DNA from: Bacteroidota bacterium
Lineage (GTDB): Bacteria; Bacteroidota; Bacteroidia; Bacteroidales; Prolixibacteraceae
Direction of reading: 5' to 3'
Assembly: GCA_039714235.1 (NCBI GenBank)
Contig: JBDLJS010000001.1
Span: 17,595 to 81,594 of the forward strand
Length of the DNA: 64,000 nt
This document shows positions 33,154 to 35,367 of the stretch, one piece after another. Under the pieces are notes generated by a model. It saw nothing but the letters and a program-made list of their open reading frames with translations. It ran no database searches and was not told the DNA's origin. Both the position numbers and the translations under genes were made by a program. Within the stretch, counting starts at the first letter, position 1. Every line of letters begins with the position of its first letter.

Positions 33154-35367
33154 CTAAGTTAATATTTTCCATCTTTTAGAAGTCAATCTGTTCAGCGCGT
33201 CAGCAAAAGTTGAATAATGAGCTGCTCCCACTTCATTTCCAGTTGACATTAACCGGTTATCGTTACCAACGATTGCACCACCCGACACACCTGCATCTCT
33301 TGCCATTTGGTCGTGGGTTGCTCTTGAACCTGCCGGCCTGTTGTAACCACTACCAACTTCTGCGTACTCATCGCCAAGCCCAAAAACATGTCCTAATTCG
33401 TGAGCAAACACATTTTGTCCACCTCTACCTTGTCTGATCACCTCAATATCAACTCTCCTGTAATCAGATGGATCGTGAGTTTCAGGATTTGTGGCTAAAT
33501 CACTCTCAGCACTCGTATCTGAATCATTTGTTCTTCCCACTGTCCATACATTGGTACTAATATTAGAATTCATTATTCTGTCGTCGATATACGAATCAAC
33601 TGTATCTATTCTCCTGTTTACCAACGACCTGTTATAGGCGGTTGTTCCCGGGGCCGATGCATATCCCTCCAAATTGACATCAATTCCTCTATCCTCATTA
33701 TCGAGCAATATCATGGGGTCGCTGAAAAAGCTATCCAGTTGTGCCCTAACCGAATCAGAAAGGTCACTTTCGTTATGTTCGAAATATATCCAGGAATAAA
33801 ATGCCATATTCGACGGATCATCACTCCTGTTACTTTCAAGCGACATAAGGTTATTAAATCCCTGAGGTGCAGAACTTCTACTTCCAGGATCATTACCTAA
33901 ATATGATCTGACACCTTGTACCATACCACTGGTTACTTTAGCTCCTGTTGCTGCATTATGTTCGGCAATAATTCTTTGAATATTAGCCACATCATCTGCA
34001 CTTGGTTGTTTTACAATTTCAACCTGTACATGGTCGCTTGTTGATTCGTCTGTAACTGTAAACAGATTTAAAAAACCACCTTCTCTTGTATTATGCTGTG
34101 CATCGCCTTGTGTTATTTCCAGATTAATTCTTGGAGTTGCCGTTACGCTTTCCCAGCCTGATTCGTCAACCTGGAACGACATGCCGGTATCTTGCCACAA
34201 ACTTGCTGCAGCCAGCAAATTCTGTTTAAACCTAATCATATGAATCTGTTTCTCCTCATCATTCCATTGAAAATAAGGTAAAATCCTCGACTGTACATCA
34301 GCCGGAAGACTGTTCATAATTGGGATAAAACCCGCCTGGTTCATAAAATGGTTTGGAGACGAATAGGTTCCGGCATTATTTTCCAGGGTATTTTTAAACC
34401 TAACTTTACCCCGAACTGTAATATTTAGCCGACTCTGGGCTGGTAGATATTTTGCCTCGAATCCAGAACCTGAAATTTCGTTCCGAGTATAAGTAAGAGG
34501 GCCATAGTTTCTGCTTTTAAAATCAGTAATTTGTTCTGCGGTACTTGCCCATGGCCACGTCCATCGTTGTACCTGATTTTGTGTTGTACTTGCCCCCTGC
34601 TGCACCGTATGCACCAACTCATGTGCCAACAGTTTATTTCCGTTTTGCGAACCGGGCCGGTATTTCCCTTCATTAAAATAAATATGGTTACCCGATGTAA
34701 ATGCCTTGGCTCCCAATTCCTGGTTCATTTGTATAGCAGCACTATCAGTATGTATTTTTATCCTGCTAAAATCAGCTCCAAAACTATTCTCCATTTGTGC
34801 TCTAGTATCGGAATCCAGCGAATGGCCATTTCCTTTGCTGTCTTTTAAATTTGTTTCTGTGGTTTGTTGCGTCTCTGCCACTTCAGATTCAGCCTTAGGC
34901 ATTAGTTCTTCCTCTTCTTCCTCCAGAGGTTGGGACTGAAGCATCTCCTCTTCTTCTTCGAGTGGTTGCGTTTGCAACATCTCTTCTTCCTCTGGTATAT
35001 CTTGCTTCTGAATGATTGTTTCCAATAATTTGGATTGAGCTGCTTCCTCTTCCTCTTCCTGCTTTTGAACAATTAACTTAGCCTGCATCTCTTCCTCTTC
35101 TTCCTCTTGCTTTTGCACCAATGGAGTTATATTTTCTGCCAATGGTTTTGTTTGCAGGACAGGTGGCTGTGATGGGGTGAAAAAGGACTGATTATCGGTT
35201 TGCCTATTAATAACTTGATCGGCCACGCGGTCGGCCTCCCGTTCGTATTCGTCGTCGGGTTGTCCAACTTTTAATTTAGGTTGTGCTGTAAAAAAATCGC
35301 CAGAACCTGAAAAAAAAAGGTTGCTGCTTTTACTGCTTTTATCTGACTTACTTACTTTTGTCTTCAT
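33154..35367 (-). CDS. eCIS-associated DUF4157 protein with C-terminal metallopeptidase and nested OmpA-like domain (candidate effector)
   Basis: DUF4157: MENSFGADFSRIKIHTD...AKAFT.G.HIYF..G.Y......LLAHELVHTVQQ. OmpA-like: IYFEHNESDL...LEGYAS.PG...YNRSL..RR..V...RRVDI. Second zinc site: HELGHVFGLGDEY. Confidence 0.85.
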   Translation of the reverse strand: MKTKVSKSDKSSKSSNLFFSGSGDFFTAQPKLKVGQPDDEYEREADRVADQVINRQTDNQSFFTPSQPPVLQTKPLAENITPLVQKQEEEEEEMQAKLIVQKQEEEEEAAQSKLLETIIQKQDIPEEEEMLQTQPLEEEEEMLQSQPLEEEEEELMPKAESEVAETQQTTETNLKDSKGNGHSLDSDTRAQMENSFGADFSRIKIHTDSAAIQMNQELGAKAFTSGNHIYFNEGKYRPGSQNGNKLLAHELVHTVQQGASTTQNQVQRWTWPWASTAEQITDFKSRNYGPLTYTRNEISGSGFEAKYLPAQSRLNITVRGKVRFKNTLENNAGTYSSPNHFMNQAGFIPIMNSLPADVQSRILPYFQWNDEEKQIHMIRFKQNLLAAASLWQDTGMSFQVDESGWESVTATPRINLEITQGDAQHNTREGGFLNLFTVTDESTSDHVQVEIVKQPSADDVANIQRIIAEHNAATGAKVTSGMVQGVRSYLGNDPGSRSSAPQGFNNLMSLESNRSDDPSNMAFYSWIYFEHNESDLSDSVRAQLDSFFSDPMILLDNEDRGIDVNLEGYASAPGTTAYNRSLVNRRIDTVDSYIDDRIMNSNISTNVWTVGRTNDSDTSAESDLATNPETHDPSDYRRVDIEVIRQGRGGQNVFAHELGHVFGLGDEYAEVGSGYNRPAGSRATHDQMARDAGVSGGAIVGNDNRLMSTGNEVGAAHYSTFADALNRLTSKRWKILT

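Follow-up and report, generated by a model that had tools for sequence, protein, structure and literature searches.

DUF4157 marks the toxins of extracellular contractile injection systems (eCIS), and its role in them is unknown (PMC8213781; PMC11297309). More than half of the predicted eCIS toxins carry DUF4157 without a recognised effector domain (PMC11297309). In AlgoCIS, the eCIS of Algoriphagus machipongonensis, two cargos share a disordered N-terminal domain (PMC8894135), and this domain and the AAA+ protein Alg15 are required for loading into the tube lumen (10.64898/2026.05.27.728243). Here we examined a window of 64,000 nucleotides (nt), the whole stretch of DNA analysed, from a Bacteroidota bacterium of the Prolixibacteraceae (assembly GCA_039714235.1, contig JBDLJS010000001.1, positions 17,595 to 81,594). 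Our subject is a gene at 33154..35367 on the minus strand, taken from the list of open reading frames (ORFs) and its translation, that encodes a protein of 737 amino acids (aa; P0001): a leader, DUF4157 and a predicted metzincin module split by an OmpA-like domain. We consider it probable that this protein is a cargo (effector) of the eCIS encoded by its own operon, and that it is a metzincin-type protease with an OmpA-like insert and a downstream inhibitor-like partner.

The AlgoCIS cargo Cgo1 (ALPR1_12695) resembles the 737-aa protein in having the shared disordered N-terminus, a central DUF4157 and a second HExxH towards the C-terminus (PMC8894135). Its gene, also from the Bacteroidota, lies between the tape-measure and AAA+ genes of an eCIS, as does the gene studied here; loading places Cgo1 in the lumen of the tube (PMC8894135; 10.64898/2026.05.27.728243). 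Compared by description, Cgo1 differs in being 498 aa long with a far shorter C-terminal domain, and neither an OmpA-like insert nor a downstream inhibitor-like gene has been reported for it.

Residues 184-259 of the 737-aa cargo (34591..34818; all features of the window described here are on the minus strand) match DUF4157/eCIS_core (PF13699, E 9.6e-34; score 115.8 bits, cut-off 22), with HELVH at residues 249-253 (34609-34623) inside the match. A linker, QNQVQRW, follows DUF4157, and residues 265-737 make up a module of approximately 470 aa. The module opens with a beta-hairpin, FEAKYLP...LNITVRGKVRF, that fits the family consensus GGFxAxYxPxxxxLxIxVRGxVxF. Towards its end the full zinc motif, HELGHVFGLGDEY, occupies 33364-33402, with HELGH at 33388-33402. 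The extended form HELGHVFGLGD (residues 656-666) matches the metzincin pattern HExxHxxGxx(H/D), and a Met-turn, LMS, lies downstream at 33244-33252. An earlier model-made note on this DNA, here called the original prediction, had placed HELVH, a QVQR linker, this module start, HELGH and LMS where translation finds them. Judged by its motifs, the cargo would carry two zinc sites, one in DUF4157 and one in the module.

Conservation of the module was assessed in an alignment (A1) of 106 full-module homologues, reaching down to 22% identity. H656, E657, H660, Y668, G710 and W733 were invariant in all 106 sequences, and D666 (105/106), G663 (104/106), S708 (103/106) and M707 (95/106) were nearly so. 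The family consensus, HEFGHVFGLGDEY...IMSxGN, combines the metzincin motif HExxHxxGxxD with the Met-turn, and this conservation is far above chance. An Asp at the third ligand position, followed by Tyr and the Met-turn, makes the motif most like that of snapalysin (M7) and immune inhibitor A (InhA, M6). A family profile matched snapalysin (1c7k/4hx3) over the zinc motif at E 9e-4 and InhA at 0.012, and also IgA protease. Snapalysin and InhA share with the module the HExxHxxGxxDxY motif, the Asp ligand and the Met-turn; unlike them, the module has a much larger N-terminal sub-domain, an inserted domain and no secretion signal.

To place these motifs in a fold, residues 265-737 (473 residues, numbered from 1 as model residues) were modelled with AlphaFold2 on alignment A1. 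The model had a mean predicted local distance difference test score (pLDDT) of 95.2 and a predicted template modelling score (pTM) of 0.91, as for one rigid compact body. It was compared exhaustively with 48,161 chains by VIA-align, and the best 50 matches were examined. Among these 50, the entries that were not OmpA-like were all metzincin catalytic domains except 6o38, which was not identified. The 16 metzincin entries scored Z 6.6-8.4 with 122-174 residues aligned. They comprised ulilysin (Z 8.4, 174 aligned), ADAMTS-5, ADAMTS-1, adamalysin II, snake-venom metalloproteinases, mirolysin, astacin, ADAM8, ADAM17, ADAM22, PAPP-A, myroilysin and snapalysin (Z 7.0, 122 of 134 residues, 21% identity). 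Every metzincin alignment began at model residues 22-51 and ended at 460-465, spanning the OmpA-like domain. These matches are consistent with the two-sub-domain metzincin fold, in which a five-stranded sheet, its backing helix and the helix of the active site precede a C-terminal sub-domain.

In the model, sheet strands run to residue 247, the OmpA-like domain extends from 257 to 381 and the active-site helix from 389 to 397, and another helix (451-465) follows the Met-turn. From this order of secondary structure, the insert immediately precedes the active-site helix. The insertion point is inferred to follow betaV, the final strand of the N-terminal sheet, and to come ahead of alphaB, the active-site helix. 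The N-terminal sub-domain of the predicted catalytic domain covers residues ~284-514 (model 20-250; 33826..34518), is modelled with pLDDT >90, falls within the metzincin alignments and includes family-specific helices. The active-site helix, the C-terminal sub-domain and a C-terminal helix cover residues 648-737 (33157..33426), as delimited by motif conservation, profile and fold alignments. The model supports a single metzincin-type domain, made of the N-terminal sheet, the HELGHVFGLGDEY helix and the Met-turn, around the OmpA-like insert. We accept this nested arrangement because a single clan was recovered, the alignment spans were identical and the metzincin motif is invariant. The original prediction had proposed the same nesting and had named an independently folding HELGH segment as the result that would speak against it; such independence was not seen, as the metzincin alignments cross the insert, extending over model residues ~48 to ~464. 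By its predicted fold, the module would represent a putative, previously unrecognised metzincin-type zinc endopeptidase.

The insert is an OmpA-like alpha/beta domain at residues 520-647 (model 256-383; 33427..33810), recognised both by its fold and by the family profile. In the AlphaFold2 model its fold reached VIA-align Z 12.9 (9uu2) and 12.6 (3td3), and Foldseek against the Protein Data Bank (PDB) matched it to 3td3 with E 6e-6 and a template modelling (TM) score by target of 0.73. PF00691 was matched by 87 of the 106 homologues (best E 5e-16), and the family profile matched solved OmpA-like domains at E 2.8e-13. The OmpA-C-like block of the original prediction is therefore real, and the lack of an OmpA fold, which would have counted against that prediction, did not occur. 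All 106 homologues retain the insert, with 96-159 residues in the OmpA region, and the insert therefore defines the family.

Ligand binding by the insert may have been altered. GYAS (33655-33666) stands in place of the canonical GH(T/A)D and R586 (33610-33612) is retained, as had been noted for this protein with GHTD as the reference. The substitution extends through the family: the position of the peptidoglycan-binding Asp (S571) is Ser in 90 of 106 sequences and Asp in one, and Arg586 is kept in 104. The Asp/Arg pair that binds the diaminopimelic acid (DAP) moiety of peptidoglycan is thus incomplete, the Asp being lost family-wide. Since the Arg stays while Ser takes the place of the Asp almost throughout the family, the pocket may bind something other than classical DAP-type peptidoglycan. 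The insert is like the C-terminal domain of OmpA, Pal and MotB (PF00691) in its fold, in the motif G-x-x-x...G...N..L...R..V and in the ligand-binding Arg. It is unlike that domain in the Ser found in 90 of 106 homologues and in being nested in an enzyme, within a cytoplasmically made, putatively injected protein and not a periplasmic anchor.

A literature search for metzincin together with 'OmpA-like domain' found no paper that combined them. In the gelatinases, a fibronectin-II (FnII) insert lies between strand betaV and the active-site helix and acts as a substrate exosite. These FnII repeats lie inside the catalytic domain of MMP-2 and MMP-9 (PMC7696829). The likeness to the present module consists in an insert within the catalytic domain, at the same position as is predicted for the OmpA-like domain. 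The FnII fold is unrelated to the OmpA-like fold, the third zinc ligand of the gelatinases is His and not Asp, and the gelatinases are eukaryotic, secreted and kept latent by a pro-domain instead of a separate inhibitor gene. By analogy with the FnII exosite at the same position, docking or an exosite function is the likeliest role of the OmpA-like insert.

Directly downstream of the cargo gene lies a gene of 135 aa (32716..33123) that, from synteny and a predicted complex, encodes a putative cognate inhibitor or immunity protein. The ORF has no Pfam match. To assess how regularly it accompanies the module, we used the 80 fetched loci of module relatives, to which all locus-level counts refer. 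An iterative search over their ORFs found a homologue directly downstream of the module on the same strand in 59 of the 80 loci; the two genes are separated by -9 to +270 nt. These 59 loci cover Bacteroidota, Deinococcales, Chloroflexota, Actinomycetota, Myxococcota and Rickettsiales. Three additional loci gave marginal matches, and the pair was also present in L081, a metagenomic contig described below. In one locus from a Rickettsiales-labelled metagenome-assembled genome (L041:9659-10917), two copies of the small partner follow the module in tandem. In high-GC loci the 135-aa domain at first seemed to be fused to the module, but these cases were rejected as over-extended ORFs in another frame.

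The AlphaFold2 model of the partner (pLDDT 90.7) is a Mago-nashi-like alpha+beta platform (Z 8.8). DUF6438 was matched by 7 of 43 members of the partner family, with a best E-value of 7.6e-7, and a literature search for DUF6438 returned nothing. Among the neighbours of the partner in the ESM Atlas were clusters with DUF6438 and with an emfourin domain (TM 0.61-0.64, feature score 0.92-0.93). When the module and the 135-aa protein were predicted as a complex, the interaction score ipSAE was 0.88, 0.88 and 0.89, compared with 0.00 for the best of three controls. The ipSAE mark is reached by 58 of 80 solved complexes and by 2 of 110 mismatched pairs; these counts apply only approximately, since the prediction used alignments made for this analysis. 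On the module, the confidently predicted interface comprises model residues 33-36, 70-91, 206-227, 396 (H660), 401-402 (G665, D666), 409-413 and 419-420. This is the catalytic cleft, built from both halves of the split domain and including strand 223-227; the OmpA-like insert is left untouched.

The predicted complex supports a putative role for the partner as a cognate inhibitor or immunity protein. Since the interface joins residues of the N-terminal part with catalytic residues, it also lends independent support to the nested topology: model residues 206-227 share one surface with 396, 401-402 and 409-420, as would be expected if the OmpA-like domain sits within a zinc-metallopeptidase domain as originally proposed. 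Taken with the synteny, the module and its small partner are predicted to be a widespread and previously undescribed effector/inhibitor pair. We judge it unlikely that the 135-aa protein acts instead as an adaptor, a co-effector subunit or a chaperone for loading, though some points speak for this. Dedicated chaperones are often needed by effectors of eCIS and of type VI secretion systems, the Mago-like fold is a protein-protein platform and no classical protease-inhibitor fold, and membership of the partner in the emfourin family is not supported. A chaperone or adaptor would sit poorly with an interface predicted at H660, D666 and the edge strand of the cleft, and not on the leader. The pairing also persists in loci without CIS genes within 10 kb, which fits a toxin and its antidote better than a machine-specific adaptor, and the DUF6438 and emfourin-like Atlas neighbours favour the inhibitor as well.

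Pairs of similar layout have been described. The protein emfourin inhibits protealysin, a metalloprotease, and has its gene downstream of the one for protealysin; it binds 1:1 at the active-site region and has been proposed to be an immunity protein (PMC9505478). The protealysin-emfourin pair of Serratia proteamaculans is like the present one in joining an intracellular zinc metalloprotease with a small inhibitor gene immediately downstream. It is unlike it in that protealysin is an M4 thermolysin-like gluzincin and not a metzincin, and in that the 135-aa protein has no Pfam Emfourin match; emfourin is kept here as a functional analogy only. In Leptothrix cholodnii, a gene with DUF4157 and OmpA (Lcho_3055) lies beside afp15 and is followed by a gene of ~133 aa, Lcho_3056 (Geller et al. 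2021 supplementary data). By Pfam domains and gene order this looks like the same two-gene cassette. The two genes are tabulated only: the metzincin domain, the nesting and the partner went unrecognised, and eCIS loci showed no significant enrichment of OmpA in that study.

Several results weigh against reading the 737-aa protein as an eCIS-delivered metzincin with a cognate inhibitor. The structural evidence is all predicted; the exact insertion point, and how the OmpA pocket faces the zinc site, are read from the order of secondary-structure elements and the extents of the alignments. The best scores of the cargo against the Pfam families M6, M7 and M12B (Reprolysin_3/4/5) were 15.6-18.5 bits, below cut-offs of 22-27, and against PF00691 the cargo alone scored 22.6 bits, below the threshold of 27.2. 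Foldseek with the whole model against the PDB returned OmpA-like domains only and no metzincin, and the metzincin Z scores of 7-8.4 fall in the zone where the tool advises caution over 'common arrangements'. The partner could not be assigned to Emfourin (PF20242), as no partner-family member matched at E <= 0.1 and no match was found in the source genome; nor did a Foldseek search of the PDB with the partner model return an emfourin chain. What speaks for emfourin is confined to the resemblance to Atlas clusters (TM 0.61, feature score 0.93) and the DUF6438 matches of 7 of 43 members. No CIS marker was found within 10 kb in 33 of the 80 loci. Finally, growth inhibition of E. coli by Cgo1 was independent of the HExxH in DUF4157 and in the C-terminal domain (PMC8894135).

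The Foldseek result, and Z scores of 7-8.4 close to the tool's noise warning, are what would be expected if the module were a series of separate domains: an unrelated domain, an ordinary OmpA-like domain and an independent HExxH mini-zincin tail, with a coincidental superposition on metzincins. Many matches in the search of representatives likewise list the OmpA-like domain and the C-terminal part only as their best stretch. We hold such a serial arrangement to be very improbable. The pTM of 0.91 over 473 residues indicates a fixed geometry between domains, and metzincins make up all the non-OmpA entries among the best 50 chains bar 6o38, with alignments that span the model almost from end to end. 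Snapalysin was aligned over 122 of its 134 residues, which is beyond the capacity of a 90-residue tail. The N-terminal part co-occurs with the rest in 106 of 106 aligned homologues, two apparently short forms being under-called genes (see below), and the partner interface merges the N-terminal part with catalytic residues. These observations favour the nested metzincin. Its Pfam peptidase E-values, taken family-wide, were no better than 3.8e-5, and the sub-threshold M6, M7 and M12B scores point to a separate metzincin family, not to membership of these.

The Cgo1 result bears on whether the module is a protease at all. It would fit a pseudo-protease or a non-proteolytic toxin in which HExxH is not the toxic principle and binding or some other activity is, a reading to which we give little credence. 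The invariance of both His, Glu, Tyr and G710 over 106 sequences, with the Asp and the Met-turn near-invariant, points to selection on catalysis. That a conserved partner should cover the zinc ligands, as is predicted, is also easiest to understand if the enzyme is active. Cgo1 itself is a protein of only 498 aa, and homology between its C-terminal domain and the module is not established. The reading we retain is that of a predicted active metzincin.

The assignment of the protein as an eCIS cargo comes from its leader and its position. Residues 1-177 (34837..35367) form a disordered, Glu-rich N-terminal leader, a putative eCIS loading sequence that is 64% identical to the N-terminus of the protein encoded by the adjacent gene. 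This neighbour, the second cargo gene (35400..36518; 372 aa), shares the leader (BLASTP E 6e-50 over the leader), lacks DUF4157 and has another C-terminal domain; neither Pfam nor NCBIfam gave a match. The leader of the 737-aa cargo is acidic, Gln/Glu-rich and of low complexity, with no Sec signal. Among ~90 N-termini of the family there was no Sec or lipoprotein signal or lipobox, all being disordered, cargo-like leaders.

The two cargo genes belong to a complete minus-strand eCIS operon. Its sheath gene (52922-54340) comes first, followed by two gp19-type tubes, a CIS tube, a VgrG-like spike, gp25, baseplate J and two large baseplate/fibre proteins; the sheath, tube, spike, gp25 and baseplate J genes lie at 42691-54340, upstream of the tape measure gene. 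The 3' part runs from the CIS tape measure protein (36938..38470; PF19268, E 3.6e-111) through a small SH3-like ORF, the 372-aa cargo, the 737-aa cargo and the 135-aa ORF to an AAA+ ATPase of the Afp15/Alg15 type (31378..32694; PF00004, E 5e-26), the probable cargo unfoldase and loader. The 737-aa cargo gene is thus situated at the operon's 3' end, between the tape-measure and AAA+ genes. The source genome has a single copy of the module and a single DUF4157.

eCIS are released by lysis, and Geller et al. speculate that some eCIS-associated toxins aid it (PMC8213781). The OmpA-like fold hints at an envelope target, and the module might accordingly be viewed as a producer-side factor for lysis or cell-wall remodelling that helps release the eCIS, and not as an injected toxin. 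Such a role appears highly improbable: with no signal peptide or lipobox in the ~90 N-termini, there is no known way for the protein to reach the periplasm, its leader is common to a second cargo, and its gene lies between the tape-measure and AAA+ genes like those of the AlgoCIS cargos. For the injected effector that we prefer, the tight linkage to an inhibitor and the lack of secretion signals favour a toxin active in bacterial cells.

These features suggest a sequence of events for the 737-aa cargo. By analogy with AlgoCIS, the acidic disordered leader would be the loading signal, which the operon's AAA+ ATPase probably uses to unfold the cargo and thread it into the tube lumen. In the producer, the 135-aa cytoplasmic partner, whose binding is predicted, may cap the catalytic cleft and silence the protease, and unfolding during loading would strip the partner off. 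Once injected, the module would refold and cleave protein substrates. The Ser/Arg pocket of the insert may recognise peptidoglycan or another carboxylate-bearing ligand. A bolder and tentative possibility is that the module is the first known case of an envelope- or peptidoglycan-tethered metzincin toxin, in which the insert would dock on the wall or wall proteins of a rival for the cleft to cut, while a Mago-fold (DUF6438/emfourin-like) plug would protect producers. The module and plug would then form a widespread, cross-phylum CIS effector-immunity family that is wholly missed by annotation.

For one large group of DUF4157 eCIS toxins, the analysis provides a testable predicted enzyme fold, an unusual domain-in-domain architecture and a candidate cognate inhibitor. 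If correct, it would add a new metzincin family and a bacterial parallel to exosite insertion in gelatinases. A cargo that comes with an off-switch protein of its own would also be a useful part in the engineering of eCIS. The pair also bears on the idea that AAA+ unfolding strips immunity proteins at loading.

Relatives of the module are broadly distributed. Residues 265-737 have 74 close homologues, and an exhaustive search returned 328 representative clusters (50% identity) at E <= 1e-3. A relative is present in 198 species genomes. The family ranges over Bacteroidota, Deinococcales, Chloroflexota, Actinomycetota, Myxococcota, Betaproteobacteria, Rickettsiales and Oligoflexia. Public annotation recognises just DUF4157 or OmpA-like in these proteins, and the AlphaFold DB label of family members is 'OmpA-like domain-containing protein' only. 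In the Bacteroidota loci closest to this one (L001-L013) the gene order is again tape measure, cargo, module, small ORF, AAA+. In searches by tblastn and jackhmmer with the eCIS proteins of the window, 25 of the 80 loci had a gene for a structural CIS component (sheath, tube, spike, baseplate or tape measure), and 47 had any marker within 10 kb, AAA+ or DUF4157 included. Five genomes with marker-less loci all encode a gp19-type tube (PF06841) elsewhere, compared with 0 of 14 control genomes; the distance of this gene to the module was not established. The cassette of module and small ORF may move independently of the injection machine.

In L081 (Logan contig SRR17665591), the module and small ORF have housekeeping genes as neighbours, Lambda_Bor, DUF218 and NAD synthase being examples, and no CIS gene lies in the surrounding 3-10 kb. 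Short representatives of 204-295 aa were considered as forms lacking the N-terminal part, which would have spoken against the nested arrangement, and this was rejected for the two that were checked, P0185 (233 aa; L081:2260-3699) and P0188 (245 aa; L082:2260-3735). Both are under-called genes with the full module upstream: the open frame runs ~740 nt further in that direction, and in the resulting gap a spurious ORF of ~66 aa had been called on the opposite strand.

Two further genes flank the cargo region. A basic ORF of 128 aa (36548-36934) between the tape-measure and cargo genes gave sub-threshold SH3_3/SH3_2 matches (24 bits against 27). Just past the AAA+ gene, a gene of the endonuclease/exonuclease/phosphatase family (29626-30588; PF03372, E 3e-11) encodes a protein without the cargo leader.

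The leaders of the homologues also showed recurring motifs. [V/I/L]-Q-[R/K], represented here in the linker QNQVQRW (34540-34590), occurred in 47 of 90 diverse homologues no more than ~45 residues ahead of the module, compared with 4.0 expected from shuffled leaders. Among the homologues P0042-P0217 it was found both after DUF4157 and in leaders without DUF4157, and it could be a processing site or an element of the loading signal. Other motifs were phylum-specific: PPPF.L and MPPS.Q in Bacteroidota, and LALQR.AGN.AV in Actinomycetota-like sequences. Their recurrence suggests system-specific loading signals on one effector module.

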